Shown in pieces: positions 6,023-61,125 of a DNA stretch of 64,000 nucleotides. Positions within the stretch are counted from its first letter, which is position 1. Each line of letters begins with the position of its first letter. The translations under genes were made by a program, and so were the position numbers. This DNA is from an uncultured Candidatus Saccharibacteria bacterium (GTDB lineage: Bacteria; Patescibacteriota; Saccharimonadia; Saccharimonadales; Saccharimonadaceae). The stretch spans positions 1,736 to 65,735 of the forward strand of contig CAZBLB010000001.1 of assembly GCA_964492765.1 (NCBI GenBank), given 5' to 3'. The notes beneath the pieces were generated by a model. The model had not been told where the DNA came from. It did no database searches and was given only the letters and a program-made list of their open reading frames with translations.

Positions 6023-7408
6023 ATGCAAGTTATTTTAGGTATTATTGTTGGTCTTTTATCTTTAATGTTTCTCATCGTCGCGCACGAGTTTGGTCATTTT
6101 CTCATGGCCAGAAAAAACGGCGTCCGCGTCAAAGAGTTTGGCATCGGCTTTCCCCCGCGCGCCGTCGCCTGGATAAAAACCTCTAAAAAACCCAAAATTT
6201 TGAGCGCGGACAAAACTTCCGACATAAAAAAGTCCAAGAGCTCTAAATCCGCCTCCTCCGCCCCTGTTAAATCTTGGTCTCTCCTCAAAAAATCCGACTG
6301 GAAAAATCCTCAAGATTCTTTAATTTTCAGTCTCAACTGGCTCCCGATTGGCGGCTTCTGTGCCATGGATGGCGAATCCGACGCCGATACTAAACCTGGT
6401 ACGTTCGGCGCCGCCTCCTTCTGGAAAAAGACCAAAATCCTCTTCGGTGGCGTCCTCATGAACTGGCTCGTCGCCTTCATTATTTTCACCATCCTTTGTT
6501 GGACTGGCTTGCCCGAAATCCTAAACCACCAGTTTACGGTCAAGTCCGACGAAAAAGTCTCCGTTTCCGCTCCGCTGACAGTCGCCGAAGTATTAGAAGG
6601 CTCGCCTGCCGCCGAAGCTGGGTTCTTGCCAGGAGATGTGTTGCTTGATGTTAGTTATAAAGAAAGCGCCGAGGTCACAGAAACCAAAACCCTGTTGACT
6701 GCCGACGACGTCATAGATTTTAACGCCACCCATGCCGGCCAAACTCTCACCTACACCGTCGTCGAAAGCGACCGCTCTGACGCCACAAAAGATGATGTCA
6801 AGACAGAGAACAACGAAAACGAAACGGCCAGTAAAACCCCCGTCAACGAGTTCGGAGAAAAAACTTTAACCGTCAAACTTAACGACGCAGATGCCGATTA
6901 TCTTTTAGGTATCACTATGGATTCAGGCATAAAAACCATGCGTTATGGCTGGTCTGCCCCTGTCGTTGGCGCTGGGCTGACCGTCCAAACCACCCTCGAG
7001 ACCTATCACGGGCTCTGGCTCATGCTTAAAAATCTCATCACCGGCGCCGCTCGCCAAATTTCCCCCGACGCCGAAACCAGAAAAGAAGGCCGCACCCAAG
7101 TCTCCGAGGCCACCGAAGGCGTCTCTGGCATCGTCGGCATCATCGGCGGATACTTCCCAGGCCTAGTCTCCTCTGGCGCAACATACGTCTTTCTGTTTAT
7201 GGCGGTCATCTCTGTTTCGCTGGCTTGCATGAACGTCCTGCCCATCCCTGCGCTCGATGGCGGCCGGTGGCTTATGATAGCTATTGCTAGGTTGAGACAT
7301 AAAAGGCTCACGAAGGAAAGGGAACAGACCATCGTCGCCAAAGCCTTCATTTTCCTTCTCATTCTCATGGCTATCATCACCGTCGTTGACATCATAAGGT
7401 TGTTTTAA
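6023..7408 (+). CDS. rseP: M50 intramembrane metalloprotease with PDZ domain (RseP)
   Basis: HEFGH zinc motif, LPIGGFC, NVLPIPALDGG. Confidence 0.93.
   Translation: MQVILGIIVGLLSLMFLIVAHEFGHFLMARKNGVRVKEFGIGFPPRAVAWIKTSKKPKILSADKTSDIKKSKSSKSASSAPVKSWSLLKKSDWKNPQDSLIFSLNWLPIGGFCAMDGESDADTKPGTFGAASFWKKTKILFGGVLMNWLVAFIIFTILCWTGLPEILNHQFTVKSDEKVSVSAPLTVAEVLEGSPAAEAGFLPGDVLLDVSYKESAEVTETKTLLTADDVIDFNATHAGQTLTYTVVESDRSDATKDDVKTENNENETASKTPVNEFGEKTLTVKLNDADADYLLGITMDSGIKTMRYGWSAPVVGAGLTVQTTLETYHGLWLMLKNLITGAARQISPDAETRKEGRTQVSEATEGVSGIVGIIGGYFPGLVSSGATYVFLFMAVISVSLACMNVLPIPALDGGRWLMIAIARLRHKRLTKEREQTIVAKAFIFLLILMAIITVVDIIRLF
6198..6224 (+). repeat. dispersed motif copy 2 (in rseP)
   Basis: TTTTGAGCGCGGA-CAAAACT-TCCGACA. 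Confidence 0.9.
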
Positions 7409-8202
7409 TGAATACTCAGTCAGAAAAAGCCGAAGCGCAAAAAAAGCACGCTAAACCCAAAAAAACACAGAATAACACCGTTGTTCGGAGAGTCATAAAC
7501 ATCATCCTTCTGACCGCCTGGGTCGGCGTCGTCCTTTATCTCTGTGGCTATATCGTTTCCTACGGCGTTTACGGGCTTTGTTGGCTGCTTAGAGTCCCTA
7601 TGCCGACCACTCCGGTCTGGATGACTCTTTACAATACCCTTATTTACACACTGGCCGTCATCATTATCGTTTTTATCCCCGTTAAAGTCTTTAAGGTTTG
7701 GAAAACCAATCGAAACGAACTTGGTTTTTCTCGTCTCCTTCCGACTTGGAGCGACCTCGGGCTTGCCCCTATCGGCTTCATTGTCTATCTTTTCGCCGCC
7801 TATCTTTTTCTCCAAGTCGCCGCCCAACTTTTCCCCGGCCTTAATCTCGAAGAGGCTCAAGAACTCGGCTATGACTTTTTGTCCAGTGGTCTCGACCGCG
7901 TCGTCGCTTTCTTCGCCCTCTGTATCGTCTCCCCTATCGCCGAAGAGCTCATCTTCCGCGGCTGGCTCTACGGGAAACTCCGCGCCAAAATCCCCGGAAA
8001 ATTTTCCGTCGTTTTGTCCACCCTTATCGTCTCTATTCTTTTCGGATTCATGCACGGTCAATGGAATGTCGGACTTAACGTCTTCGTCATGTCCCTAGTC
8101 CTCTGCGCCCTCCGAGAAATCACCGGTACTATTCATTCTGGTATTGTTCTCCACATCTTAAAAAACACCGTCGCCTTCGCTCTTCTTTATCTAATTATCT
8201 AA
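7408..8202 (+). CDS. CPBP/CAAX-protease family intramembrane metalloprotease
   Basis: PIAEELIFRG, FGFMHGQ, HILKN; multiple TM segments. Confidence 0.92.
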   Translation: MNTQSEKAEAQKKHAKPKKTQNNTVVRRVINIILLTAWVGVVLYLCGYIVSYGVYGLCWLLRVPMPTTPVWMTLYNTLIYTLAVIIIVFIPVKVFKVWKTNRNELGFSRLLPTWSDLGLAPIGFIVYLFAAYLFLQVAAQLFPGLNLEEAQELGYDFLSSGLDRVVAFFALCIVSPIAEELIFRGWLYGKLRAKIPGKFSVVLSTLIVSILFGFMHGQWNVGLNVFVMSLVLCALREITGTIHSGIVLHILKNTVAFALLYLII

Positions 8203-8221
8203 TATATGTTATAATATATTT

Positions 8222-9724
8222 ATGACAACATTAGCCGATTATAGAAACGAACGCTTGCGCAAACTTGAAGAAATCAAGTCTTTAGGCATAGACCCCTACC
8301 CTCCAAAGTCCCACCGCACCCATAAAATCGCCGACATCACCGAAAAATACAGCGAGCTAGAAGAAAAAACCGTTTCTATCACCGGCCGTCTCGTCGCCAT
8401 CCGCTCCTTCGGCAAGCTTGCCTTCCTTAAACTCCGCGACCTCTCCGGCGAGGTTCAAGTTTTCATGACCGCCGCCGATTTATCCCCCAACGCTTCCACT
8501 CTTTTCAACACCAAACGCCTCCGCCTCCTCGACACCGGAGATTTTGTCGAAGCCACCGGTCGCGTCGGCAAGTCCTCCACCGGCGAGATTTCCGTTTTCT
8601 GCAACGCCGTCCGCCTTCTTGGAAAGTCTCTCCGTCCGCTCCCCGGCCGCGACGGCTTCACCAACAAAGAAGAACGCTATCGTCGTCGCTATGTTGACAT
8701 GAACGTCAATCCCGAAGTTCGCGACCGTCTCGTCCGTCGCAGTCGCTTCTGGCAAGCCACTCGCGAGTTTATGCTTTCGCACGGTTTTGTCGAGGTCAAC
8801 ATCCCCGTCCTCGAGCACACCACCGGTGGTGCCGACGCTAATCCTTTCATTACCCACATGGACGCCCTCGACGAAGATTTTTACCTCCGCATCTCTCATG
8901 AGCTACCCCTAAAGCGCCTTCTTGGTGGTGGCTTCGAAAAAGTCTTTGACATCGGCCCTCGTTTCCGCAACGAAGGCATCGACGACGAGCACCTCCCCGA
9001 GCACATCGCTTTCGAGGCCTACTCCGCCTACGAAGATTACGAAGATGGCATGACCTTCTACGAAGAAATGATTAAATACGTCGCTAAGAAAACCTGGGGC
9101 ACGCTCAAATTCAACGTCTCCGGCTTCGATATCAATCTCGACCAACCTTGGCCTCGCATAAAATACGCTGACCTCCTCAAAGAAAAATACAACGTCGACG
9201 TCTTTAATCCCGACCGCGAACAGCTTAAATCCATCCTTCGCGAAGATTTTACTCGCTCTGAAGATAGCCACGACCCTGCCGCGAAAAAATCCCTTGAGCA
9301 CACTCTAGAGACCGTTTCAACACCCCACCTCATCGACCACGTCTGGAAACTCATCCGCAAAACCTCTGCCGGCCCGTTCTGGCTCGTCGAAGAGCCTCTC
9401 GAGCTTTCGCCTCTCGCCAAAGTCAGTCCCGAAAACCCCAAAGTCACCCAACGTTTTCACCCGATTATCGCCGGTACCGAAATGGGCAACGGTTTCTCTG
9501 AGCTTAACGACCCTCTCGACCAGCTCGCTCGTTTCAAAGAGCAACAAGCCGCTCGCGACGCTGGCGACTCTGAGGCTCAAATGCTCGACATGGACTTTGT
9601 CGAAATGCTCGAATACGGCATGCCTCCCGCCTGTGGCTGGGGCAACAGCGAACGCAACTTCTGGCTTCTCGAAGGCGTCTCCGGCCGCGAGGCCGTCCCC
9701 TTCCCGATAATAAAACAAAGATAG
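8222..9724 (+). CDS. lysS: lysyl-tRNA synthetase (class II)
   Basis: RSFGKLAF, RYRRRYVDM, GGADANPF, YLRISHELPLKRL, FRNEG, GNGFSELNDPLDQ, EYGMPPACG. Confidence 0.99.
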   Translation: MTTLADYRNERLRKLEEIKSLGIDPYPPKSHRTHKIADITEKYSELEEKTVSITGRLVAIRSFGKLAFLKLRDLSGEVQVFMTAADLSPNASTLFNTKRLRLLDTGDFVEATGRVGKSSTGEISVFCNAVRLLGKSLRPLPGRDGFTNKEERYRRRYVDMNVNPEVRDRLVRRSRFWQATREFMLSHGFVEVNIPVLEHTTGGADANPFITHMDALDEDFYLRISHELPLKRLLGGGFEKVFDIGPRFRNEGIDDEHLPEHIAFEAYSAYEDYEDGMTFYEEMIKYVAKKTWGTLKFNVSGFDINLDQPWPRIKYADLLKEKYNVDVFNPDREQLKSILREDFTRSEDSHDPAAKKSLEHTLETVSTPHLIDHVWKLIRKTSAGPFWLVEEPLELSPLAKVSPENPKVTQRFHPIIAGTEMGNGFSELNDPLDQLARFKEQQAARDAGDSEAQMLDMDFVEMLEYGMPPACGWGNSERNFWLLEGVSGREAVPFPIIKQR

Positions 9725-9744
9725 CTCCACTCAGATAGTCAAAG

Positions 9745-10046
9745 AAAGAGCAAAAATAGCTTTTAGGATTATAAAGAATTTTTACAATGAACTATTTTTA
9801 ACCACTCGGTTTGTTTTTGATTTTTATGGCGTCTAAAGAAATACTCACCGAGATAGTCGAAAAAATCCACGGATGAGCGAAATCGATGGCCGGTGTTTCC
9901 CGAAGCGCATTTCGCGAATCCGACTGGAGTTTTGAGACTATCCCGGATGAGTGTTTCCCAAGCCAGAAAAATGCAAAAACAAACCAGATGGCCAAAAATA
10001 ATTCTTGCCTAAAAATTCCCAATCCTAAAAACTATTTTTGCTCTTT
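9745..10046. repeat. 302-nt rod-like imperfect palindrome (element A)
   Basis: 9745-9770 pairs with 10021-10046 (25/26); successive arms pair inward to a tip near 9886-9905; core shared with 21287-21458. Confidence 0.88.
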
Positions 10047-10079
10047 TTCGCACAATACGCTTATGCTATAATATTATAT

Positions 10080-10997
10080 ATGTCTAACAAAGTCATGGTT
10101 ATCGGCACAGGCAACGTCGGCGCTTCCATTGCCTTTTCTCTTATAAACCAACGCACCGCCGTCAACGAACTCGTCCTCGTCGATATTAACGTCGATGACG
10201 CCGAAGGCGAAGCTATGGATCTTCGCGACGCTCTCGCTGTCGCCCCTAGCTACCTTAAAATAAAATCCGGCTCATATAAAGACGCGCGCAGTTGCGATAT
10301 TATTATCATCACCGCCGGCGCCAACCAAAAACCCGGCGAAACTCGCCTTGACTTACTCAAGAAAAACTCCTCTATCTTCCGCCCCATGGTCAAAGAAATC
10401 ATGGCCTGTGGTTTTCGCGGCATCTTTCTCGTCATCACTAACCCCATGGACGTCATGACTTATCTCACCTGGAAATATTCCGGCCTCCCCTCCGACCACG
10501 TCATCGGCAGCGGCACCGTCCTCGACTCTGCTCGTCTCCGCCTCAAGATTTCCGAAAAACTTTCTATCCACCCAAAGTCCATCCACGCCTACCAAATTGC
10601 CGAACACGGCGACACCGAGTTTGCTCTCTGGTCTTCCGCCGACGTCGCCGGCCAGCCTTTAACCACTCTGCTCTCCGAAATCTCCCTCATGGAGATAGAA
10701 GATTTTGCCCGCAACGAGGCCTACGAAATCATCGCCAAAAAAGGCGCCACTCACTATGGCATCGGCGTCTGCACCACCCACATCATCCACTCCATCTTAA
10801 ACGACGAACGTCGCGTCATGCCTATCTCCTCCTACGACGACATTAATGATGTCTATACCGGTTTCCCGACCGTCCTCGGTCGTCGTGGTGCCATCAAACG
10901 CCTCGATATTAAAATGTCCGAGTCCGAAGCCATAAAATACCAAAAGTCCGTCAACACCCTAAAAAGCGCCATCAAATCTCTCCACGTCCGCGCCTAG
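10080..10997 (+). CDS. ldh: L-lactate dehydrogenase
   Basis: GTGNVG Rossmann motif, TAGANQKPGETRLDL (Gln at the specificity position), DSAR, EHGD, KKGATHYGIG; ATG 10080 lies 7 nt after TATAAT. Confidence 0.95.
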   Translation: MSNKVMVIGTGNVGASIAFSLINQRTAVNELVLVDINVDDAEGEAMDLRDALAVAPSYLKIKSGSYKDARSCDIIIITAGANQKPGETRLDLLKKNSSIFRPMVKEIMACGFRGIFLVITNPMDVMTYLTWKYSGLPSDHVIGSGTVLDSARLRLKISEKLSIHPKSIHAYQIAEHGDTEFALWSSADVAGQPLTTLLSEISLMEIEDFARNEAYEIIAKKGATHYGIGVCTTHIIHSILNDERRVMPISSYDDINDVYTGFPTVLGRRGAIKRLDIKMSESEAIKYQKSVNTLKSAIKSLHVRA

Positions 10998-11006
10998 CCC
11001 TGACAG

Positions 11007-11040
<34 letters not shown>

Positions 11041-11077
11041 CCTAGTTTTTGACCCATAAAAATGCTATACTAAAATC

Positions 11078-12988
11078 ATGAAAAAGCTCTCGTCTTTCTT
11101 GCTTTTATTAACTTTATTCAGCCTCGTTTTCTCTCATGACTCCGCTCTTGCAAGCGCCAACGATTTTTATTTTTCCTCCGCCACGTTTGACTATTATCTA
11201 GAAAAAACCGCCGACAGCTCCTCGTCCATGTCCGTCAAAGAAACTCTAACTGCCGTCTTTCCAGGCTTTGACCAAAACCACGGCATCGAACGTTGTATCC
11301 CGACCAAATATCGCGAGGTCAAGTCTCTCGACGAAAGCTCTGTCTCCGTCCTCCGTAATGGCGTCGCCGAGCCTTTCACTTCTTCCCTTAACGAAAAGGG
11401 CGAAATCTGCCTCCGCATCGGCAGCGCAAGCACCTATGTCCACGAAACCCAGGTTTACGAAATCTCCTACGCCCTAGAAAATGTCATCCTCCTTCCCGAC
11501 GACTCCACAAACCAAGAACTCTACTGGGATACTAACGGCACCGGCTGGGAACAAACGTTCGAACAAATCACCGCAAACGTCCACCTCCCACCCTCTTTAT
11601 CGTCCGCATACCTCGATAGCCCTTCTTGTTATGTCGGCTATTACGGCACCAGCGGTATCAGCGCCACTTCTCGCTGCAAAATCTCTAGCACCAATACCTC
11701 AGACCCGTCAGAGAATACCGAGAATGGCTCAGTTTCAGAAAAGCTCATCACCTTTACCGCCACAAACGTCCGCCCCGGAGAAACTTTGACTTTCGATTTA
11801 GAGTTCTCCCCCGACACTTTCTATGTTAAAACTCCTGACTATACCGTACGAAACATTTTTTACACCCTTTTTGGAATAGTCGGCGTCTTGCCAGTTATCT
11901 TTGGTGTCGTTCAAGTTAAAAAATCTTTTAACGAGGTCAAAGAAAAGCGCGCCATCGCCAAAGAAAAAATCGTTCCTGTCCAATACACCCCGCCTAAAGA
12001 CCTCACCGTCGGCGAGTCCGCCGAACTTTCATTAAACGTCATAGAGCCTTCCGAGGTCGCCACCCTGCTCGAGCTTGCCGTCCGCCACCACATTTCTCTC
12101 GAGCGCGGAGAAAAGAAAACTTTTGGCGGCTATAAGTGGAAAATCCATGTCCTAGACATAGAAAAAATCTCCAGGGCCGAAGAGGACATCCTTAAAATCC
12201 TTAACGGCGGAGATTCCGTCAAAAACGGCGACGTTATAGAAGTCAAACGTCGCTCCGCCACTTCTCGCATGATTCATCTCGGAAACGATTACCGCGAAGA
12301 AAACAAAACTACGCTCGCCTTGAAAGCCATGTTCGAGCCAACCAAAGACAGAAACGGACTTAAAAGCGTCAAAACCTCTCTAAGTCTTATTATAGTGGCT
12401 TTCTTCATTATGATAGCTTTGTTTGTCGCCAGCGATTTTATCCCCGAACTTTTCCGCTCCGTCGACGGTATCGAAACCGTCTTTAATGTCATCCCGTTCG
12501 TCTTTTTCTTTAACATCTTCGGTCTCATCATTATTTTAAGCATCGAAGGCTCACTTAAACAATATCGCGACCGCACTATTTTAGGTCTTCAAACCTCCAA
12601 ATATCTTGACGGACTAAAAACTTATATGGCCATGAGCGAAAAAGAACGGCTTGCTTTCCTGCAAAGTGTTTCCGGAGCCGACACATCTAGCGCCGGTATC
12701 GTTAAACTTTACGAAAAACTCCTCCCCTACGCCGTCATCTTCCGCCTCGAAGATTCTTGGCTCAAAGAGCTTAATCACTATTACGAAACCGAGTCCGTCG
12801 ACAGGCCAAACTGGTTGGTCGGCGCGGCCATCATCAACAGCTCCGATTTTCGCACCTTTAAGACCTATACCGCTTCCGCCATCAGTCAAAGTACCTCGGC
12901 TTCGTCCAGTTCCTCCGGCAGTTCCGGTGGTGGAGGTGGCGGATTCTCCGGCGGCGGTGGAGGTGGCGGCGGAGGTGGCGGCTGGTAA
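11078..12988 (+). CDS. DUF2207 family membrane protein
   Basis: Signal peptide, HGIERCIP, ELYWDTNGTGW, two TM regions, YEKLLPYAVIF, terminal SSGGGGGGFSGGGGGGGGGGGW. Confidence 0.9.
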   Translation: MKKLSSFLLLLTLFSLVFSHDSALASANDFYFSSATFDYYLEKTADSSSSMSVKETLTAVFPGFDQNHGIERCIPTKYREVKSLDESSVSVLRNGVAEPFTSSLNEKGEICLRIGSASTYVHETQVYEISYALENVILLPDDSTNQELYWDTNGTGWEQTFEQITANVHLPPSLSSAYLDSPSCYVGYYGTSGISATSRCKISSTNTSDPSENTENGSVSEKLITFTATNVRPGETLTFDLEFSPDTFYVKTPDYTVRNIFYTLFGIVGVLPVIFGVVQVKKSFNEVKEKRAIAKEKIVPVQYTPPKDLTVGESAELSLNVIEPSEVATLLELAVRHHISLERGEKKTFGGYKWKIHVLDIEKISRAEEDILKILNGGDSVKNGDVIEVKRRSATSRMIHLGNDYREENKTTLALKAMFEPTKDRNGLKSVKTSLSLIIVAFFIMIALFVASDFIPELFRSVDGIETVFNVIPFVFFFNIFGLIIILSIEGSLKQYRDRTILGLQTSKYLDGLKTYMAMSEKERLAFLQSVSGADTSSAGIVKLYEKLLPYAVIFRLEDSWLKELNHYYETESVDRPNWLVGAAIINSSDFRTFKTYTASAISQSTSASSSSSGSSGGGGGGFSGGGGGGGGGGGW

Positions 12989-13036
12989 TCGCCCCTAGCC
13001 CTAGAAAAGTTCTATAAAATATGAGATAATATCACC

Positions 13037-14287
13037 ATGTTAGACATCAACTTCATCCGAGAAAATCAATCGGCCGTCGAGCGCGCCGTCCGCGAAAAAC
13101 GCTACAAAATCTCTATTAAAGACCTTCTCTCCGTCGACGATTCTCGTCGTGAACTCTTAAAAAACGTCGAGTCTCTCCGACAAAAAAAGAACGAAATTGC
13201 CACCCAAATAAAAACCACCAAGAAAAAGCCTGACGCTTCGCTCATCGAGGCCGGGAAAAAGGTCAAAGAAGAACTCTTTGTCCTAGAAAAATCTCTCAGC
13301 GAAAAAGAAGCCGAGCTTAAAACCGCTCTCAAATCCGTTCCTAACGTTATCTTTGACGACGTTCCGCTTGGCGGGGAAGAATGTTCCGTCGAAATTAAAT
13401 CTTGGGGCGAAAAAAAGTCCTCTGGCGTCGACCATCTCGACTACGCTACTTCTCGCGACTGGGTTGACTTTGACCGTGGCGCCAAAGTCGCCGGCAGCAA
13501 GTTTTATTATCTAAAAGGCGATCTTGCCCTCCTAGAAAACGCTCTTATCCAATACGGTCTCAAAAAAGTCACCGAAGCCGGCTTTACTTTCATGACCGTC
13601 CCCGACCTCGTCTCCTCCAAAGTTCTCGAAGGTTGCGGGTTTAATCCACGCACCTCCGACCAGTCCGACGAATATTTTGTCGAAGGCGAAGACCTTGCGC
13701 TCATCGCCACCGCCGAAATGCCTCTCACCGGTTATCACATGGACGAAATCCTCGAAGAAAAAGACCTTCCACTTCTCTATGCCGGCCTTTCCGCCTGCTT
13801 CCGCAAAGAAGCTGGCACCTACGGCAAGCACACTCGCGGTCTTTTCCGTGTTCACCAGTTTAACAAACTCGAGATGTACGCCTTCTGCCTCCCCGAACAG
13901 TCCAAGGACCTCCACGAAAAAATCCTTTCCGTCGAAGAAGACATCTGGCAAACCTTAGGTATTCCTTATCGAATTATCAACATCGCCGCTGGCGACCTCG
14001 GCGCTCCTGCCGCCAAAAAATACGACATCGAATATTGGTCTCCTGCTGACCAAACTTATCGCGAGCTTACTTCTTGCTCCAACTGTACCGATTTCCAAGC
14101 TCGTTCGCTCAACATCCGTGTCCGCAAGAAAAACGGCGAACTTGTTGTCGCCCACACCTTAAATGGCACCGCTATCTCTCTTGCTCGCACCATGGTTGCC
14201 GTCATCGAAAATTACGCTCAAAAAGACGGCAAACTCATTATCCCCGAAGTTCTTCGACCCTATCTAAACAACAAGAAGGAGCTATAA
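13037..14287 (+). CDS. serS: seryl-tRNA synthetase
   Basis: MLDINFIREN, LIATAEMPL, CFRKEAG, RGLFRVHQF, SCSNCTDFQAR, HTLNGT. Confidence 0.99.
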   Translation: MLDINFIRENQSAVERAVREKRYKISIKDLLSVDDSRRELLKNVESLRQKKNEIATQIKTTKKKPDASLIEAGKKVKEELFVLEKSLSEKEAELKTALKSVPNVIFDDVPLGGEECSVEIKSWGEKKSSGVDHLDYATSRDWVDFDRGAKVAGSKFYYLKGDLALLENALIQYGLKKVTEAGFTFMTVPDLVSSKVLEGCGFNPRTSDQSDEYFVEGEDLALIATAEMPLTGYHMDEILEEKDLPLLYAGLSACFRKEAGTYGKHTRGLFRVHQFNKLEMYAFCLPEQSKDLHEKILSVEEDIWQTLGIPYRIINIAAGDLGAPAAKKYDIEYWSPADQTYRELTSCSNCTDFQARSLNIRVRKKNGELVVAHTLNGTAISLARTMVAVIENYAQKDGKLIIPEVLRPYLNNKKEL

Positions 14288-14288
14288 A

Positions 14289-14654: not shown

Positions 14655-14710
14655 TGTGCTACACTAATACTACCTTAATTTAAGATAACGCCGTTTGGAG
14701 AATCGCCTGC

Positions 14711-17542: not shown

Positions 17543-17545
17543 CCA

Positions 17546-48365: not shown

Positions 48366-48394
48366 AAATAAGGCGCCCGTCGCCTTATTTTTTT
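48366..48394. terminator. bidirectional terminator between rpmA and dnaE
   Basis: AAATAAGGCG-CCCGT-CGCCTTATTT followed by a T-tract. Confidence 0.85.
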
Positions 48395-48418
48395 GTCTAA
48401 AAACGCCCACCAAAACCA

Positions 48419-52177: not shown

Positions 52178-52276
52178 GTTAAAATTATAACACAGCAAAA
52201 ATCGTTCATCGGCTTGCTTTTTATAGCTCCCCTATGTTAAAATAACCATAAGTAAAACACTAACTTGAGAAAATCC

Positions 52277-53089: not shown

Positions 53090-53113
53090 TCGCCCCCGCC
53101 TAGGTGTTCTTGC

Positions 53114-53644
53114 CTAGGCTTTTTGGTGTTCCAAATTTTTCAGCGCATAGACCGCTATTCCGGTCGCCACCGAAACATTAAACGATTCTTTCTTGCCCTC
53201 CATCGGTATTTCTAAAAACATATCAAATATATCATATAGCGAATAATCTATCCCCTTCATCTCCTCCCCAAGCACCAAAACTACCTTGTCTCCAAGTGCT
53301 CGCCTTATTCTTTCATAATTCTCCGGCACAAGAGATATTAGTCGCGTGTCTTCAATATTATTCTCCAGCCCAACGACAGAAAAGCCATCATCCTTTAATT
53401 TCTCTAGCTCAGATTTTATATCATCAGACGCATAAAAGTTTACGTATCTCTCCGCCCCTAATGCCGTTTTTGCTATCTGTTTGTTTAGTTTATCTCTGAG
53501 ATGGGGCAAAACCCTCATATCGTCCACCCTCGGCGTATAGCCAGAAAAGATTGCTTTCGCTACCCCAAACCCGTCCGCCGTCCTCAAAATCGCCCCCACA
53601 TTATACGTCGAACGAATATTGTCTAGCGCCAGCCACAATTCCAT
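53114..53644 (-). CDS. TrmH/SpoU family RNA methyltransferase
   Basis: LDNIRSTYNVGAILRTAD, LGEEMKG, EIPMEGKKESFNVSVA. Confidence 0.95.
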   Translation of the reverse strand: MELWLALDNIRSTYNVGAILRTADGFGVAKAIFSGYTPRVDDMRVLPHLRDKLNKQIAKTALGAERYVNFYASDDIKSELEKLKDDGFSVVGLENNIEDTRLISLVPENYERIRRALGDKVVLVLGEEMKGIDYSLYDIFDMFLEIPMEGKKESFNVSVATGIAVYALKNLEHQKA

Positions 53645-53670
53645 TCATTCATGATACAATAAAATAAGTC

Positions 53671-54258
53671 ATGATTCAAATAACCCCTGATAATCTTTCT
53701 CAAATTGCTAAAAGCCTCACCTCTGGTCAGGTCGTCGCGCTTCCGACCGAAACCGTTTATGGTCTCGCCGTCTCTCTTAACTCTCCCACCGCCCTAGAAA
53801 AACTTATTTATCTCAAACGTCGCGACCTAAAATCCGGCAAAGTTTTCACTCTCGTTCCGCCCAGCCCCGCCGACATCAAAACCTACGCGACTGTCACTCG
53901 CCTCGCCCGCACTTATATCGCCAAATATCTCCCCGGAGAAATCACCCTCATTCTTTCCAAAAACCCCGAGTTTTCTCACCCTTATTTTAACCATTTCTCC
54001 ACCATCGGCATCCGCATCCCCAACACCCCGCTCTTTAGCCGCCTCTTGCCCCTCGTCGGACCTATTCTCCTCACCTCCGCAAACCCTCGTGGCGAAAAGC
54101 CCGCCACCTCTTCAGAAGAGCTCATAAAAACCATGCCAAAAATCGACACTCTCGTTGAAGGCAAAACCCCCGAAGGTCGCCTGCCTTCCACTATTGTTGA
54201 CCTCACTAAAAAATCCCCCGTTATCGTCCGTCAAGGCAACCTAGTCATAAACCTCTAA
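53671..54258 (+). CDS. tsaC: L-threonylcarbamoyladenylate synthase (YrdC domain)
   Basis: LPTETVYGL, GIRIP, TSANP, PSTIVD. Confidence 0.93.
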   Translation: MIQITPDNLSQIAKSLTSGQVVALPTETVYGLAVSLNSPTALEKLIYLKRRDLKSGKVFTLVPPSPADIKTYATVTRLARTYIAKYLPGEITLILSKNPEFSHPYFNHFSTIGIRIPNTPLFSRLLPLVGPILLTSANPRGEKPATSSEELIKTMPKIDTLVEGKTPEGRLPSTIVDLTKKSPVIVRQGNLVINL

Positions 54259-54278
54259 ATATGGTATAATCTTCCCCG

Positions 54279-56546
54279 ATGAATCGTTATAACCCTCTTT
54301 CTATTGAACAAAAATGGCAAAAAATCTGGGAGAACACCTCCGCCTTTAAGGCCGACGACAAAGACACTAAAAAAGAAAAACTCTTTATCGCCGAAATGTT
54401 CCCCTATCCCTCCGGCGCCGGCCTCCACGTCGGTCACGTCCGCAATTTTTCCATCGTCGACGCTCTCGCCCGCTTCTACACCCAACAGGGCATGAACGTC
54501 CTGCGCCCCTTCGGCTACGACACCTTTGGTCTCCCCGCCGAAAACTATGCCATTAAAACCGGCACCTCGCCCAAAGACGCCACCAAAACCAACATCCACA
54601 ACTTCCGTACCCAGCTCAAACGCCTTGGCTTCGCAATAGATTGGAGCAGGGAAATAAACACTTCCGACCCCGAATACTACCGCTGGACCCAGTGGTGTTT
54701 CCTCCAACTTTTCAAAGCCGGCCTCGCCTACCAAAAAGAGTCTTATCAGTGGTGGTGTCCAGTCGACCAAACCGTCCTCGCGAACGAACAAGTCGAAAAC
54801 GGTCATTGTTGGCGCTGCGGGCACGAAGTCGAAAAGAAAAAAATGAAACAATGGTTCTTTAAGATTACCGCCTACGCCGACGAACTCTTAAAAGACATAG
54901 ACTCTCTCGATTGGCCGGAAAAAATCAAAACCGCCCAAAGAAACTGGATTGGCCGCTCCGAAGGCGCAGAAATCGACTTTTCCGTCTCCAAAACCCAAAA
55001 AATCACCGTTTTTACCACCCGTCCCGACACCATCGAAGGCGCAACTTTCCTTGTTCTTGCCCCTGAACACCCCCTCGCTAAAACCCTCGCCACCCCAGAC
55101 ACCAAAGCCGCTGTCGAAAATTACATCAAATCTTCTCTTAAAAAATCCGAAATCGAACGCCAAGAAAACAAAGAAAAAACCGGCGTCTTTACTGGCTCCT
55201 ACGCCAAAAATCCCGTCACTGGCGAAAAACTCCCCGTCTGGGTCGCCGACTACGTTCTCTCTGGCTACGGCACCGGCGCTATTATGGCCGTTCCTGCCGA
55301 AGACGACCGCGACCGCGAGTTTGCCGAAAAGTTCTCCCTCCCTGTCGTTAAAATCACTCATGTCCCCGACCCGCTCCCCGGAAAGAAAAAAGTTTCTTAC
55401 CGCATGCGCGACTGGCTTATCTCTCGCCAACGCTACTGGGGCTGTCCTATTCCTATCGCCTACGATAAAAACGGCGCTCCTCACGCCATCCCCGAAGACC
55501 AGCTCCCTGTTCTCCTTCCTGACATCACCGATTACAAGCCCGACTCTTCCGGCCGTTCCGCTCTCGCTAAAGCCAAAGATTGGCTTCACGTCACCATCGA
55601 CGGCGAAAAAATGACTCGCGAGACCGACACGCTCGACGGCTACGCCTGCTCCTCTTGGTATCTCTGGCGCTACGCCTCACCAAAAGACAACCACGCCGCC
55701 TGGGACCCCGACCTCATCCAAAAATGGGCGCCTACCGACGTCTATGTTGGCGGCGACCACGCTGTTGCCCACCTTCTCTACATCCGTTTCTGGTGCAAAT
55801 TCTTCGCAGACAAAGGCCTCCTGCCTTTCCGCGAACCAATCAAACGCCTCCTCTATAACGGCTACATCAACGCCCCCGACGGCAAGAAAATGAGCAAGAG
55901 CAAAGGCAACGTCATCGACCCACTTGACGTCATCGACTCCGGCTACGGCGCTGACACCCTCCGCACCTATGAGCTCTTCATCGGTCCATACAACGAAGAT
56001 GCCGCTTGGTCCACCAAGGCCATCGGTGGCGTCTATCGCTTCCTTAACCGCTGTTATAATCTCGCGTTCGACGCTTCGCTAAAAACCTGCGACCAAAAAC
56101 TTACCGCCTTTATCCGCAACAAAACCACCAAAAAAGTCACCGATGATTTATCCCGCGCCAGCTTCAATACCGCCGTCGCCGCCCTTATGGAATACGTCAA
56201 CGAACTCTATAAATCCGGCAGCTCTCCCGCCGACCTCGTTGTTCTCTCAAAACTCCTCAAGCCTTTCGCGCCTCATCTCGCCTCCGAAATGCTCGAAAAG
56301 CTCGGCGAAGACGACTCTTGGCCATTCTACGATTCTTCCGCCCTCACCGAAAGCTCCGTCGAAGTCGTCGTTCAAATCAACGGCAAGCTCCGCGCTAAGC
56401 TCTCCGTCTCCTCCTCCGACCTTAAAGACCAAGAAAAACTCGCTGCTCTCGCTCGAGAAAACGAAAACGTCCAAAAATTCCTCAAAACCGAGCCTAAAAA
56501 GACCATTTTTGTCGAAAAAGCCCACTTACTAAATTTTGTCGTCTAA
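54279..56546 (+). CDS. leuS: leucyl-tRNA synthetase
   Basis: MFPYPSGAGLHVGH, TTRPDT, RDWLISRQRYWG, KMSKSKGN. Confidence 0.99.
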   Translation: MNRYNPLSIEQKWQKIWENTSAFKADDKDTKKEKLFIAEMFPYPSGAGLHVGHVRNFSIVDALARFYTQQGMNVLRPFGYDTFGLPAENYAIKTGTSPKDATKTNIHNFRTQLKRLGFAIDWSREINTSDPEYYRWTQWCFLQLFKAGLAYQKESYQWWCPVDQTVLANEQVENGHCWRCGHEVEKKKMKQWFFKITAYADELLKDIDSLDWPEKIKTAQRNWIGRSEGAEIDFSVSKTQKITVFTTRPDTIEGATFLVLAPEHPLAKTLATPDTKAAVENYIKSSLKKSEIERQENKEKTGVFTGSYAKNPVTGEKLPVWVADYVLSGYGTGAIMAVPAEDDRDREFAEKFSLPVVKITHVPDPLPGKKKVSYRMRDWLISRQRYWGCPIPIAYDKNGAPHAIPEDQLPVLLPDITDYKPDSSGRSALAKAKDWLHVTIDGEKMTRETDTLDGYACSSWYLWRYASPKDNHAAWDPDLIQKWAPTDVYVGGDHAVAHLLYIRFWCKFFADKGLLPFREPIKRLLYNGYINAPDGKKMSKSKGNVIDPLDVIDSGYGADTLRTYELFIGPYNEDAAWSTKAIGGVYRFLNRCYNLAFDASLKTCDQKLTAFIRNKTTKKVTDDLSRASFNTAVAALMEYVNELYKSGSSPADLVVLSKLLKPFAPHLASEMLEKLGEDDSWPFYDSSALTESSVEVVVQINGKLRAKLSVSSSDLKDQEKLAALARENENVQKFLKTEPKKTIFVEKAHLLNFVV

Positions 56547-56617
56547 CGCTTTCTTCCTTGAAATTTTCTCAAAAGTGTGCTAAAATAGTATAAAGTATCT
56601 ATCACTAAAGGAGCATT

Positions 56618-56818
56618 ATGCCTGAACCTAAAAAACAGAGCAGCCCGCGCAAAACCGGCCTTAGAAGGAGTCACCTCCGCCTAAGCCTCGCTCGCGCCGT
56701 TAACAAAATCTCTCCGGTCAAAGCCTTCGAGACTAAGAAAAAGACCCCTAATCTTAAAGTAAAAACCGCCACCTGCAAAAAATGTGGTTCTAAAAACTGC
56801 AAGTGCAAAAAGGACTAA
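56618..56818 (+). CDS. rpmF: 50S ribosomal protein L32 with Cys-rich C-terminal tail
   Basis: [19 protein letters not shown]; AAGGAG RBS; upstream of nusB and rnc. Confidence 0.88.
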
Positions 56819-56819
56819 A

Positions 56820-57380
56820 GTGGCTTCAAATCGGCACCTAGGCAGAATTATATCGCTCCAGAGCTTGTACGAATACGAGTTCCGCAGCAAGGCGGGCGAC
56901 GCCAACGCCGAAATCGACCATATCGTCGCAAAAAACATCATTCCATACGAAAAAGCCCTAGGAGACACTGAGTTCGTCTATCGTCTTTCTCGTGGCGTCG
57001 TCGAAAAGACCCCCGAGCTAGACGCCGAACTCTCCCCGCTTGCCCCTGAATGGCCGCTTGACACTATCGCCGCCATCGACCGCAACGTCCTCCGTATCGG
57101 ACTTTACGAACTTAAATATTGCGCCGACTCGGTTCCTCCGAAAGTCGCCATCAACGAAGCCGTCGAGCTTGCCAAAGCCTTCGGCGCAGAAAACTCATCA
57201 AAATTCATCAACGGCGTTCTTGGCTCCGCGTTTAAAAAACTCGGTCTTAAAGCCGATAGTTCTGATGGGTCCAAAGAAAAAACTCATGACAACTCCTCCC
57301 AAAACTCCACCTCAGACGACCCCGGCAAAGAGTCTGCCTCCGCGCCGTCCGCCGCTCAAGAGGAAGGGGAACAATCTTAA
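56820..57380 (+). CDS. nusB: transcription antitermination factor NusB
   Basis: [45 protein letters not shown]; GTG at 56820. Confidence 0.95.
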
Positions 57381-57903
57381 AGTTCCGGAAGCCCTTCCGA
57401 AACAATACAAACCTTCCCCGATTAGCAAAATCAAGGAGACCGTCTTCCGCAAAAAGCCGGTCATCCAAGAGATTGTCCGCGAACCGACCGCTGGCGGCAT
57501 TGTTTTTCGACTCACTCCCGACAGTCGCGATATTGAGATTCTTCTTATTCAAGATTCCAAAAATCGCTGGACTATTCCTAAGGGTCACATCGAGCCAGGC
57601 GAGTCCGCCAAACAAACCGCCATCCGCGAAATCGGCGAAGAGGCTGGGCTTTTCCATATCAACGTTCTCTGTTGGCTCGGCAAAATCCATTTCAAATACC
57701 GCCGTCTCGACAAACTTGTCCTCATGACCACCCAAATCTACCTTGTCCACTCCCTTGACCCCCGCGAAACACCCACCAAAGAAAAATGGATGAACGGCAT
57801 CAAATGGTTCAAATTTTCCGACGCCCTCGACGCTATCGAATACGAAGACATAGAAAAACTCATGCTCATAGCAAAGAAAAAAATCCGCTCAGGAGAATTT
57901 TAA
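57286..57903 (+). CDS. NUDIX hydrolase (start codon uncertain)
   Basis: Nudix box [23 protein letters not shown]; the nearest in-frame ATG (57286) lies inside nusB. Confidence 0.85.
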
Positions 57904-57909
57904 ACACAC

Positions 57910-58611
57910 ATGGACACTACCCCCTATCAAACTTTCGCCGAAGAAAAACTCGGCTTCAAATTTAATGACATCAACTTGCTCATTACTGCCCTCACCCACC
58001 GCAGTTACGTCAACGAGCATAAAAAATCCGCCACCGCCCACAACGAGCGTCTCGAATTTCTCGGCGATGCCGTTCTCGAACTCGTTTCCTCCGACTTCCT
58101 CTTTCGTAACTACGACGAGCCCGAAGGTGTCATGACCTCCCTTCGCGCCGCCCTCGTCCGCACCGAGTCCATCGGTGCCGCCGGCGAAGAACTCGGCTAC
58201 GCACCCCTCGTCCGCCTCTCTCGTGGCGAAAAACACGGCACCGACCGCGCCCACGCCGTCATCCTCGCTGACTGTTTCGAGGCCGTCATCGGCGCCATTT
58301 ATCTCGACAAAGGCTACGAAGAAGCCAAAAAGTTCATAGAAAAGCATATTCTGACCAAAATTGACGACATTCTCGATTCCGGCTCTTGGCGCGACCCCAA
58401 GTCCTACTTCCAAGAACTCGCCCAAAAAGCCGACGGAGAAACCCCAGCCTACCACACCATCAAAGAAGAAGGGCCCGACCACGACAAAACCTTCACTGTC
58501 GGCGTTTATGTCGGCAAGTCTATCAAAGGTGTAGGCGTCGGTCACAGCAAACAAGAAGCCCAAACCGCCGCCGCAAAAGAGGGAATCAAAGCCTACAAGC
58601 TCGGAAAATAA
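57910..58611 (+). CDS. rnc: ribonuclease III
   Basis: HNERLEFLGDAVL, ADCFEAVIGAIYLD, dsRBD DPKSYFQE. Confidence 0.99.
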   Translation: MDTTPYQTFAEEKLGFKFNDINLLITALTHRSYVNEHKKSATAHNERLEFLGDAVLELVSSDFLFRNYDEPEGVMTSLRAALVRTESIGAAGEELGYAPLVRLSRGEKHGTDRAHAVILADCFEAVIGAIYLDKGYEEAKKFIEKHILTKIDDILDSGSWRDPKSYFQELAQKADGETPAYHTIKEEGPDHDKTFTVGVYVGKSIKGVGVGHSKQEAQTAAAKEGIKAYKLGK

Positions 58612-58713
58612 TCTCTCACCCTTCTCGTTCGTCTTCGCGCGTCTCCTCACCTCTTTACTTTTTCCCCAAAATCTACTATAATAAACCCACTATTAATTTT
58701 AAGGAGAAATCCA

Positions 58714-59067
58714 ATGCTCGCGATTCGCATGCAGCGTAATGGCCGTACTCACCTCCCGGTGTATCGGATAGTCGTCCAAGAATCACAGCGCCATCCCCTC
58801 TCTGGGCGCGTTGTGGCCGAGGTCGGCTCATACAACCCAGAAACCAAAAAACTCACCCTCATAAAAGAAAAAGTCGAGTTTTATCTTAAAAACGGCGCCC
58901 AGCCTTCTTCTCGCGTCGCTCACGTCCTCGAGAAAAACGGTGTCAAACTTCCTGAGTGGTACAAAAAGCCCCCAGTAAAGTCCGTTAAGGCTAAACACGC
59001 CAACAAACTCCGCAGAAACCAGCCCAAAGAGGCTCCTGCGGACGCCGAAGCTCCCGCCGAGGCTTAG
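58714..59067 (+). CDS. rpsP: 30S ribosomal protein S16
   Basis: MLAIRMQRNG, YRIVV, EVGSYNP, GAQPS. Confidence 0.97.
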   Translation: MLAIRMQRNGRTHLPVYRIVVQESQRHPLSGRVVAEVGSYNPETKKLTLIKEKVEFYLKNGAQPSSRVAHVLEKNGVKLPEWYKKPPVKSVKAKHANKLRRNQPKEAPADAEAPAEA

Positions 59068-59108
59068 CTAACCCCTACAATTCACAAATCGTAGGTTCTA
59101 TGCACAAC

Positions 59109-59137
59109 AAAAATCGCCCCTAAAGGGCGATTTTTTA
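59109..59137. terminator. bidirectional terminator, AAAATCGCCC family
   Basis: AAAAATCGCCC-CTAAA-GGGCGATTTTT between convergent rpsP and khpA. Confidence 0.85.
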
Positions 59138-59144
59138 GTTCCGA

Positions 59145-59519
59145 TTATATATCGAGGTCGTCCAAGTCTTTCAGCTCAGCCCGAGTTTTGTCCGCTACGC
59201 TCTCGTCGGCTTCCTCAGTCTCAGCCTTTTCACTCGCTTCATCCGCCTCTGTCGTTCCACCAGTCTCCGCCCCATCCGTATTCACAATTTTAAGGTTATA
59301 GCGCGCATCGTTCTTCGTTCCAAGCGCCCTAAGAAGCGTACGAATAGACTGCGCCGTTACCCCACGCTTGCCAATCACGCGCCCCACGTCTTCTGGATCA
59401 ACCGACAGAGAAAGAAGCACGCCTTTTTCATCAATTTTTCTTTCAACAGAAACTTTATCTGGATTATTAACGAGAGTTTTCACGATATACTCAACAAATT
59501 GCTGGTCGATGGTTGACAT
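59145..59519 (-). CDS. khpA: KH-domain RNA-binding protein KhpA
   Basis: VDPEDVGRVIGKRGVTAQSIRTLL (GxxG KH loop). Confidence 0.92.
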   Translation of the reverse strand: MSTIDQQFVEYIVKTLVNNPDKVSVERKIDEKGVLLSLSVDPEDVGRVIGKRGVTAQSIRTLLRALGTKNDARYNLKIVNTDGAETGGTTEADEASEKAETEEADESVADKTRAELKDLDDLDI

Positions 59520-59694
59520 TTTTTGCTCCATGTTATTATTTTACCCCTATTATATCACAAACCTTCGCGCTCGCGCCAAAAAAATCGCCCCCTGTTGGGG
59601 GGCGTGGCCAGAAACGGCGCGGAAAAATCGGTAGAAAATCACGGAGCGAACAGCTAGGCAAGAGCCGAAACGAAACGGGCGTAAAAGTCGCGTT

Positions 59695-60138
59695 TTACGA
59701 CTGCTTCGCCTCGCGTTCTTTGCGCTTCGCCTCCACCTTCTTATACATCTCCTCAATCTCATAAAGAGACATCGGCATCGGCACGTCCTTCTTCACCTCT
59801 CTCGCGACGACTCTTCTGTAATAGTCTCTTCGGCTAGCCGACAGATGAAGATTGTTTAAGATTGCCGACTTGTCGCGAGCAGAAGCAGAAAGCGGGATAC
59901 CTTCGGCGTGCGCCACGTCCACGAGTCGGTCAAACCTTCGCGACACTTTTCCGTTCGCGTCGCTTAGTCGCCTCTCAAGACGGTCCCACTCTCCGTGGTA
60001 TCTTTCATTAAAAAGCTCAATCACGCGAGGATGCGGAGTCCGCTCCAGAAGCTCCTTCTTCATAAAATAAATGCGATTAAACGCACCAATATCTTTCAGG
60101 AGCCCCAAAATTTCCAGATAATAAGTTGCGATAGACAC
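59695..60138 (-). CDS. hypothetical basic protein (147 aa)
   Basis: GTG start, GGGGGTG RBS, upstream TGCTATAAT; Arg/Lys-rich; no motif recognised. Confidence 0.75.
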   Translation of the reverse strand: MSIATYYLEILGLLKDIGAFNRIYFMKKELLERTPHPRVIELFNERYHGEWDRLERRLSDANGKVSRRFDRLVDVAHAEGIPLSASARDKSAILNNLHLSASRRDYYRRVVAREVKKDVPMPMSLYEIEEMYKKVEAKRKEREAKQS

Positions 60139-60315
60139 CTATATCACCCCCTAAAAGGTCTATCCTTTTATTATAGCACAAAACTCAAGAAAAATCAACC
60201 TCAAGCCTTCACCACCCCTAATCAAGCCCCATCCCCGCACAACACTAATAAACCCCACAAACCACCGCGCCCCACACGCTCCGTGCCCAAACCAACCCAA
60301 AAAATCCCCACCACC

Positions 60316-60415
60316 AAAAAACCACCGGTAGCCAAACCCGTGGATTTTTGAACATATAAGCTCTCAACTTTTATGTGTAAAGCCGACTCGCAGTTAGCTT
60401 TGTTCAAAAAGAACT
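60316..60415 (-). ncRNA. putative structured sRNA or riboswitch-like leader (~100 nt)
   Basis: Follows a consensus promoter; TTTTTGAACA/TGTTCAAAAA stem enclosing two hairpins, then a GC hairpin and T6. Confidence 0.45.
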
Positions 60416-60421
60416 ATACCC

Positions 60422-60450
60422 AGTATACTCAAATTTCTTATGCTTGTCAA
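60422..60450 (-). promoter_or_regulatory. consensus sigma70 promoter
   Basis: TTGACA-17 bp-TATACT on the minus strand. Confidence 0.85.
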
Positions 60451-60466
60451 GATTTTTTTGAAAAAT

Positions 60467-60491
60467 AAAATCGCCCCCTGTCTAGGGGGCG
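60467..60491 (-). terminator. terminator, AAAATCGCCCC family
   Basis: Minus strand CGCCCCC-TAGACA-GGGGGCG-ATTTTATTTTT downstream of 60552-60995. Confidence 0.7.
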
Positions 60492-60551
60492 TAGGTTTTT
60501 TGGGTTCTAACTAGCCGACGTCTCGGATAATTAATGTTCTGAACGGACGTC

Positions 60552-60995
60552 TCAGCCAATCGCTTTCGTCACAATCTTCCACGCCGTAAGTCTCGGAAAA
60601 ATCGTCGCAATCAGCGCCAGCTCGCGGTCGAAAAGCACAGCCCCCTCCACGGTATTGTTCGGCTTACGCGCAGGTATCTCCGGGGTCGTATAGCAGGCCA
60701 GCTCGCATTTCGGCGCACCCTCGATGTCGGGTCTCAGTGGCCTCGCCACCACGTCGTGTCCACGACTCGGCGCATACACCGCAATCTTGTCCACCCAGAC
60801 TTCCGCGCCCAGGCTAATTCCACTGCCGGCCGCAAAGCCAAACACCATCACGTCCGCCATCTGCGGAATATTCAGTCTCTTGGCCGCGTCGAGCGACCAA
60901 ATCCCTCCCTTGATTAAATAAATCTGGTGGCCGAACTTGCTAAACCTCTCGCGCGCAAAGGCGTACTCTCTAGGCTCCGTTGTCAGGATATGCAT
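60552..60995 (-). CDS. degenerate nucleoside phosphorylase / MTA-SAH nucleosidase-fold protein
   Basis: Motif order matches PNP_UDP_1 (HILTTEPRE; LIKGGIW; VMVFGFAAG; LFDRELALI; KIVT); GGAGGTG RBS before ATG 60995. Confidence 0.65.
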   Translation of the reverse strand: MHILTTEPREYAFARERFSKFGHQIYLIKGGIWSLDAAKRLNIPQMADVMVFGFAAGSGISLGAEVWVDKIAVYAPSRGHDVVARPLRPDIEGAPKCELACYTTPEIPARKPNNTVEGAVLFDRELALIATIFPRLTAWKIVTKAIG

Positions 60996-61051
60996 AAAAA
61001 CACCTCCGTTCCTGCATGCTCCCAAAAGTTCTAATGTGCTACGGATTTCCA

Positions 61052-61080
61052 ACTATAAACCGTTTCCGCCCTTTTGTCAA
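61052..61080 (-). promoter_or_regulatory. sigma70 promoter
   Basis: TTGACA-17 bp-TATAGT on the minus strand. Confidence 0.8.
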
Positions 61081-61098
61081 CTTCGCCCCATGCCCGAT

Positions 61099-61125
61099 TT
61101 TTGAGCGCGGATGAAATCTCCGACA
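61099..61125 (+). repeat. dispersed motif copy 6 (intergenic)
   Basis: TTTTGAGCGCGGA-TGAAATC-TCCGACA. Confidence 0.9.

Follow-up and report, generated by a model that had tools for sequence, protein, structure and literature searches.

A 64-kb stretch of DNA from an uncultured Candidatus Saccharibacteria bacterium (contig CAZBLB010000001.1), hereafter the window, contains ribosomal operons, rpoA, rpoBC, two sortase genes, pheT, uvrA and dnaE, among others. Its proteins are encoded at 99.9-100% DNA identity on metagenome contigs from the gut of goats and other ruminants and in the metagenome-assembled genome (MAG) GCA_017404215.1. Distributed among these genes is a short motif, TTTTGAGCGCGGA-N7-TCCGA, with six exact matches in the window, at 5213 (+), 6198 (+), 19685 (-), 33586 (+), 46987 (-) and 61099 (+), all of them without a mismatch over the 18 fixed bases. 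Shuffling of the window gives an expectation of 0.26 matches, and none of 100 shuffles reached six. A previous sequence-only reading of this DNA had noticed the motif and found no other full copy by eye, and a search of the window in which up to three mismatches were tolerated indeed yielded no copy beyond the six. Each of the six copies departs from the 27-base consensus TTTTGAGCGCGGAGCAAACTTCCGAAA at 2-5 positions, the next-best 27-mers of the window at 9; the intervals are thus free of degenerate copies, the presence of which the sequence-only reading had named as an observation that would speak against it. The recurrence of the motif as first described is confirmed. The copies, including a seventh located outside the window in the same genome, and the A/T-rich DNA in which they are embedded are the following:

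5213..5239 (+): copy 1, exact match, core TTTTGAGCGCGGAGCGATTTTCCGACA; antisense in the 5' part of a sortase gene (4137..5420, -; Pfam Sortase), the frame of which reads SENRSALK; 220 nt upstream of frr (5459; Pfam RRF)
6198..6224 (+): copy 2, core TTTTGAGCGCGGACAAAACTTCCGACA; sense inside rseP (Peptidase_M50; 6023..7408), encoding ILSADKTSD in a Lys/Ser-rich stretch of RseP
19683..19709 (-): copy 3; antisense inside a Mur-ligase gene (18860..20212, +), the frame of which reads SEFRSALK
33586..33612 (+): copy 4; sense inside pheT (32163..34646), in the B5 domain, encoding ILSADETSE
46985..47011 (-): copy 5; antisense to codons 41-49 in the gene of a methyltransferase (46866..48086, +)
61099..61125 (+): copy 6; in the spacer between rpoB, the start of which (61,328) follows 203 nt downstream, and a divergently oriented gene without known function (60552..60995, -)
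70,304-70,328 in window-equivalent coordinates (+): copy 7, outside the window; rplW, C-terminal tail
Within 5170..61220, around each core: a phased platform that spans ~140 bp (about -45 to +95, counted from the first base of the core), with A/T-rich patches every 10.7-11 bp

Two of the host proteins share the peptide ILSADKTSD across the motif. In RseP it belongs to a Lys/Ser-rich stretch between the HExxH motif and the next conserved block (window 6170-6300), and in the ribosomal protein L23, the product of rplW, to a long Lys-rich C-terminal tail (window-equivalent 70,280-70,440; positions 553-700 of contig L100).

Conservation, placement and origin of the motif

A scan for the exact pattern, with each species represented by one genome, gave 93 stretches, 58 of which came from seven ruminant-gut Saccharibacteria MAGs; the remainder consisted of scattered singletons and one Acidobacteria locus. 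The motif-bearing relatives are labelled Candidatus Saccharibacteria, which together with the gene content assigns the window to this phylum, and the motif is real and clade-specific. Since 65 exact copies in 440 kb were accompanied by 13 copies with mismatches (8 with one, 4 with two and 1 with three), exact matching overlooks about one copy in six. A viral scan revealed no contig carrying the motif. In a metagenome scan there were, among the matches listed, no Saccharibacteria contigs, and the result was dominated by the Acidobacteria locus, which lies upstream of gyrB and is discussed below. The motif family appears to be undescribed, insofar as a literature search, limited for this clade, found no paper linking Saccharibacteria with an uptake sequence.

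Alignment of 64 copies yields the consensus TTTTGAGCGCGGA-SSAAACT-TCCGAAA, which includes the inverted repeat CGGA-N7-TCCG. The core comprises ~27 bp, at least 20 positions of which are nearly invariant. Copy 4 in pheT is identical to the copy of a relative at 27 of 27 positions within surroundings that are 70% identical. This strict conservation, together with the rarity of variants with a single mismatch, supports selection at the DNA level.

The placement of the copies relative to genes points in the same direction. Of 67 copies, 60 (~90%) are located inside open reading frames (ORFs) of at least 100 codons, 28 in sense and 32 in antisense orientation, and they are distributed over five frames (S2, 20 copies; S1, 8; A2, 15; A0, 13; A1, 4). 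The seven non-coding copies amount to about the non-coding share of these genomes. Along the host ORFs the copies are evenly distributed, and an enrichment at gene ends was not significant (19 and 16 observed, 14.6 expected). A peptide motif is ruled out because genes on both strands read through the motif in a total of five frames, which places conservation at the nucleotide level. As placement ignores both gene strand and reading frame, the site acts on double-stranded DNA. The copies show no polarity with respect to the skewed strand (39 versus 28), which eliminates a polar motif of the type of Chi or the FtsK-orienting polar sequences (KOPS).

The strand skew is in itself unusual. On the + strand GC skew ranges from -0.10 to -0.42 in every 2-kb bin of the window (1-64000), and it is at least as negative where the genes are on the - strand (42-46 kb and 48-52 kb); since it persists over these genes, coding does not account for it. 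The C-rich strand is the one with more genes, among them the ribosomal operons and rpoBC, and in the relatives (loci L007-L098) the absolute skew amounts to 0.1-0.4. An unusual strand disparity has been described in a further genome of the candidate phyla radiation (CPR) as well (PMC7143001).

How the copies came to their positions can be deduced from comparison with orthologues. Outside the ~27 bases the copies share no sequence, and their flanks beyond ~10 nt are 25-45% identical. In serS, where two relatives carry a site, the relatives encode LSELSSALK and the window LSEKEAELK, a codon-for-codon replacement that leaves the length unchanged. The pheT copy likewise causes no change in length, and the Pfam B5 domain that contains it is intact. 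Orthologues without a site show neither an insertion nor a deletion at the corresponding position. Because the flanks are unrelated and the site-less orthologues are equal in length, the alignments indicate that the copies arose in place by substitution and not by insertion of a mobile element.

These comparisons bear directly on an explanation of the motif as a site of recombination or inversion, or as the footprint of a small mobile element inserted in frame, comparable to a miniature inverted-repeat transposable element (MITE) or a Rickettsia palindromic element (RPE). The occurrence of copies in both orientations would fit such an origin, as would a synteny break exactly at the motif in one relative (L036) and the location of copies 2 and 7 in insertion-like Lys-rich tails, where ~10 extra bases are shared on each side. 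The unrelated flanks and the replacement of sequence without change in length in the SerRS and pheT genes make this explanation improbable. In addition, no recombinase gene adjoins a copy, and in four metagenome assemblies the number of strand-changing joints at copies was 0, on which ground inversion sites were rejected, albeit with the low power inherent in assembled contigs. Mobile elements are further characterized by homology over the entire element, by terminal repeats or target duplication and by insertions relative to empty sites; here the empty orthologous sites are of the same length as the occupied ones. RPEs resemble the motif in being repeats within protein genes of a reduced, host-dependent bacterium, with the reading frame kept. 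However, RPEs are insertions of 100-150 bp that are homologous throughout, whereas here the homology is confined to ~27 bp and no insertion is seen in the orthologues.

Helically phased flanks and the question of expression signals

Outside the core the copies have one further property in common. In the aligned copies the A/T content swings between ~0.25 and 0.75, with peaks near -42, -31, -20, -9, +1, +16, +27, +39, +50, +61, +71, +83 and +94. The Fourier amplitude peaks at 10.7-11 bp and reaches 0.074 downstream and 0.058 upstream of the core, compared with a maximum of 0.022 in controls, for which 200 sets were drawn from the same DNA. The phasing fades beyond about -45 and +100. The A/T profile is roughly mirror-symmetric about core position 14.5-15 (correlation 0.8), and the centre of the inverted repeat is at position 16. 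The phase is identical in every class of frame and orientation and among the non-coding copies, and it is the same again when the seven copies of this genome are considered by themselves. It is therefore not a coding artefact of amphipathic helices, in which 3.6 residues would correspond to 10.8 nt. Within the tracts A and T are interchangeable, so that the phasing belongs to the duplex and does not reflect residual homology. A/T patches that recur once per helical turn over ~140 bp, with symmetry about a core that is partly palindromic, are typical of DNA that bends or wraps around the surface of a protein.

In an alternative explanation the motif is an expression signal, either in the DNA, where a global regulator would have its promoter or operator, or in the RNA, as a leader, a small RNA or a recoding signal. 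It contains TTGAGC followed 17 nt on by xAxxxT, loosely like -35 and -10 elements, copies 1, 5 and 6 are situated within 250 nt upstream of gene starts, and CGGA-N7-TCCG could form a hairpin of 4 bp. We regard this role as hardly probable in view of the small number of non-coding copies (7 of 67), the sense to antisense ratio of 28:32 and the A-or-T tracts, which belong to the duplex and not to one strand. A sigma-70 promoter was ruled out since only the A at position 2 of the putative -10 element is conserved, 90% of the copies are in genes and half are antisense. An RNA element or recoding signal was rejected as well: in an Rfam search of the window at the gathering threshold the only match was a tRNA, the TGA in copy 2 is out of frame, and again half of the copies are antisense. 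True promoters carry TGCTATAAT, an extended -10 element, none of which belongs to a motif copy. In the window it occurs 10 times, against 0.13 expected, at the following positions:

TGCTATAAT: 2384, 3149, 10064, 18845, 23305, 24489, 34589, 46836 (-), 46849, 60170 (-)

It is often found 7-15 nt ahead of a start codon, as at 18845 before 18860, at 24489 before 24504 and at 46849 before 46866, the last being the promoter of the methyltransferase gene (46866..48086) that contains copy 5. These positions suggest that many mRNAs are leaderless or have a very short leader.

Other intergenic features of the window were recorded alongside the promoters. The regions 9745-10046 and 21282-21463 are alike in that their inverted arms share TTTTTACAATGAAYTATTTTT ... 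AAAAATAATTCTTGMCTAAAAATTCC around different inserts. In all four metagenome assemblies a form of the 21.3-kb region occurs that lacks 52 bp (21346 to 21399), and one assembly joins the arms of the 21.3-kb region to sequence found at 9.75 kb. The two regions resemble a small intergenic cassette that recombines or is mobile, or else back-to-back promoters around a small RNA. Runs of (TA)n of ~30-35 bp are present at 11005-11043 and 31149-31187, just upstream of genes starting at 11078 and 31213.

Spacing and orientation along the chromosome

The left ends of copies 2-6 are separated by 13,487, 13,901, 13,401 and 14,112 bp, with the copies on strands +, -, +, -, +, and copy 1 precedes copy 2 by 985 bp. 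Inside the window these values bear out the sequence-only reading, which had given the same four gaps to within 2 bp, the same order of strands and an extra copy ~1 kb ahead of copy 2. From this pattern a model was derived in which alternately oriented sites every ~13.7 kb set loop or domain boundaries. In its favour are the run of four gaps between 13.4 and 14.1 kb, with the strands alternating, and the small probability of such a run under uniform random placement, about 2e-5 per window. Four gaps so even have P = 2.4e-5 for 6 sites in 64 kb and P = 3.9e-5 for 7 sites in 81 kb, a run of this kind somewhere in a genome of 75 sites has P ~1e-3, and strand alternation adds a further factor of 1/16, all of these values applying to a pattern that was picked after the fact.

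The flanks of the window in the same genome allowed the model to be confronted with sequence from which it had not been derived. On the left, locus L001, 100% identical to the window over 11 kb, spans the window-equivalent positions -9,914 to 11,024. It contains copies 1 and 2 only and none from -9,914 to 5,212, so that the left gap exceeds 15,127 bp and the copy that had been predicted near -7,500 is absent. On the right, the 102-kb contig L100, identical to the window where the two overlap, was read to the window-equivalent position 70,995, short of the second predicted position near 74,800. It contains copy 6 and one new copy, at 70,304 (+), which follows after 9,205 bp on the same strand as copy 6. 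The order of sites over 81 kb is thus + + - + - + +, with the four even gaps bounded by gaps of >15,127 and 985 bp on the left and of 9,205 bp on the right. Two of the seven sites (5213 and 70,304) lie off the 13.7-kb lattice, and one lattice point is empty.

Alternating orientation, which had been proposed as a rule, fails in the same way. The copy at 70,304 is on the + strand, and the orientation runs in the relatives include ++++, ++ and --+, without alternation. In contig coordinates the seven relatives have gaps as short as 129 bp and as long as 93 kb, and no gap close to 13.7 kb. Alignment of the relatives to the 81-kb region placed their sites at window-equivalent positions of ~13.3, 29.7, 33.46, 52.3, 59.2 and 68-69 kb, where this genome has none. 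The site at ~13.3 kb is that in serS (two species), and the site at 52.3 kb lies upstream of dnaE (two species). Since the flanks fail out of sample and the spacing is not conserved in relatives, the regular spacing of 13.7 kb and the strand alternation are confined to a local run and do not characterize the genome as a whole, and a lattice of boundaries is very improbable. The case counsels caution: a regularity that was nominally very improbable (P ~1e-5) vanished once the flanking sequence was read.

The sequence-only reading had favoured a chromosome-organising role, in loop or domain boundaries or in the loading or stalling of a translocating complex, over random mobile insertion. The argument from regular spacing does not survive outside the window. 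The rejection of mobile insertion does, with unrelated flanks and no insertion or deletion in site-less orthologues, and an architectural role is plausible at the DNA level, given a placement blind to strand and frame and ~140 bp of helically phased A/T tracts.

Some positions are common to several species and others are not. Copy 4 is common to relatives exactly and copy 5 at the level of the locus. In the N-terminal 100 codons of the methyltransferase (window 46866-47140; L036, L039), the motif is found at three positions in three species, antisense to the gene here and sense in relatives L036 and L039. This is a case of site turnover within a locus and not of positional conservation. In pheT of relative L048 (2651-2804) two copies on the same strand are 129 bp apart, and this genome has the downstream one only. 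Copy density differs about three-fold between species, with 7 copies in 81 kb here (~1 per 12 kb) and 14 in RGIG2377, where the site-bearing contigs add up to 459 kb.

Candidate functions of the motif

To the interpretation of the motif as a sequence-addressed DNA-wrapping site, with an architectural or topological function in the chromosome, we assign about an even chance. According to this scenario, a protein, probably a dimer, would recognize the ~27-bp core, after which the flanking DNA would be bent or wrapped around the surface of the protein. Each copy would then constitute a fixed, high-affinity architectural or topological site. In the version that we prefer, it would be a strong gyrase site written into coding DNA, and it would be situated inside genes because the compact genome has almost no intergenic space. 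Among known DNA-wrapping proteins gyrase matches best and is the leading candidate, although its identity with the wrapping protein is less likely than not. That a protein binds, that the DNA wraps around it and that this protein is gyrase is what we infer from the arrangement of core and flanks.

The binding sites of known chromosome organizers provide one standard of comparison. The sites parS, NBS (Noc-binding site), matS and ram, recognized by ParB, Noc, MatP and RacA, respectively, are palindromes of 13-16 bp with no reported helically phased flanks, each type being occupied by its own organizer protein and concentrated in one part of the chromosome. They too number tens per genome, are often located in genes regardless of strand, are highly conserved and are partly palindromic, and the copy number of the motif and its tolerance inside genes are compatible with sites of the parS, NBS or matS type. 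The core described here differs from them by its asymmetry, with an extra GAGCG on one side.

A closer structural parallel is offered by gyrase. The gyrase motif of E. coli is a symmetric sequence of 130 bp, with a centre from -16 to 19 flanked by two arms (-63 to -17 and 20 to 66) in which the sequence alternates with a period of 10.75 bp; it was read by its authors as DNA lying on the enzyme with the A/T minor grooves facing the protein (PMC6379681). Preferred gyrase targets include the conserved repeats of BIME-2/REP (bacterial interspersed mosaic elements and repetitive extragenic palindromes) and the strong gyrase site of phage Mu (PMC6379681). The A/T phasing around the motif conforms to such a footprint, with a centre, two roughly symmetric arms from about -45 to +100 and a period of 10.7-11 bp. 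The likeness to the gyrase motif and to strong gyrase sites comprises the extent of ~130-140 bp, a centre of ~30-36 bp between two arms, the alternation of A/T and G/C every ~10.75 bp, an approximate dyad symmetry and the presence of many sites per genome, and in the BIME-2 repeat there is a precedent for a repeated sequence as the target. REP and BIME are, however, extragenic imperfect palindromes of ~35 nt, whereas 60 of the 67 copies here are in ORFs and only CGGA/TCCG is self-complementary.

A link to gyrase might also be seen in the Acidobacteria match. Among the matches listed, 96 of 158 stretches outside Saccharibacteria represent a single orthologous locus of soil Acidobacteria (L108 1818-1842; e.g. 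L026, L030 and L143), which is the only large cluster of matches outside Saccharibacteria. There the 18-base pattern precedes the start of gyrB by 63 nt, in the orientation of the gene, within a conserved region of ~200 nt in which alternative hairpins are possible, with TCCGA pairing with a downstream CGGAG. The region has no Rfam match. The chance of a coincidence with a topology gene is estimated at ~0.003-0.01. As support for gyrase the coincidence is suggestive at most, and the Acidobacteria element may be an undescribed gyrB leader or autoregulatory element.

Several observations argue against a wrapping site occupied by gyrase, or against a structural site altogether. In E. coli the gyrase motif has a degenerate centre, in contrast to the 20 or more nearly invariant positions of the core, and this strictness points to a sequence-specific protein that is perhaps unrelated to gyrase. 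The A/T profile has its mirror centre at 14.5-15, displaced by 1-1.5 bp from the centre of the palindrome (16). A period of ~11 bp is general for A/T in bacterial DNA, so that the period alone does not identify gyrase. No gyrB gene is present in any of the motif-bearing Saccharibacteria blocks. The Acidobacteria sequence lacks the conserved non-fixed positions of the Saccharibacteria motif and may match by chance. Lastly, the approximately three-fold variation in density and the movement of sites within genes between species would be explained by a self-propagating drive no less readily than by a constant structural requirement.

In the main rival explanation the motif is a DNA uptake sequence that tags DNA for preferential uptake by the competence machinery and spreads in coding DNA by uptake bias and recombination, as does the uptake signal sequence (USS) of the Pasteurellaceae. 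USS and the DNA uptake sequence (DUS) of the Neisseriaceae occur at a density of roughly 1 per kb. The motif shares with them a GC-rich core specific to one clade, helically phased A/T tracts, both orientations, a location mostly in coding DNA in several, preferred frames, an origin in place by substitution with turnover between species, and a copy number that varies between species as expected for drive. In the USS, a GC-rich core is accompanied by helically phased T tracts; copies are found in either orientation, genes tolerate them, and they evolve in situ (PMC3458573). Moreover, Saccharibacteria are naturally competent through ComEC (PMC10633639), which would provide the machinery in the host lineage. 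Against uptake stands the density, which at ~1 per 12 kb in this genome and at most 1 per 30 kb in RGIG2377 is about ten times sparser than that of USS and DUS and thus far from an over-representation of ~1 per kb. Compared with their cores, that of the motif has two to three times the length and is far less variable, with one-mismatch variants rare (8 against 65 exact copies). The phasing extends on both sides over ~140 bp and does not consist of two one-sided tracts, and the tracts are A-or-T instead of T-specific. Cultured Saccharibacteria of a different genus were transformed with synthetic DNA, for which no special sequence was reported (PMC10633639). We consider an uptake function unlikely, but the data alternatively allow, by analogy with the USS, what would be the first uptake sequence outside the Proteobacteria.

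If the copies are uptake sequences, self-DNA recognition would be extended to a newly tractable, naturally competent phylum. If they are wrapping sites, the reading that we prefer, a bacterium with almost no intergenic DNA would still hard-wire its chromosome topology or organization at defined addresses and bear the cost inside essential genes (pheT, rseP, serS and rplW). One may speculate, with due reserve, that an ultra-small, host-dependent Saccharibacteria lineage wrote topological anchors into its genes, in the form of tens of 27-bp cores on 140-bp platforms that recruit gyrase or another organizer. Embedded in coding DNA, such anchors would correspond to REP/BIME or to the strong gyrase site of Mu. 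Wrapping sites would provide a direct handle on nucleoid organization in the CPR, with the 27-bp core as bait and a defined gyrase substrate.

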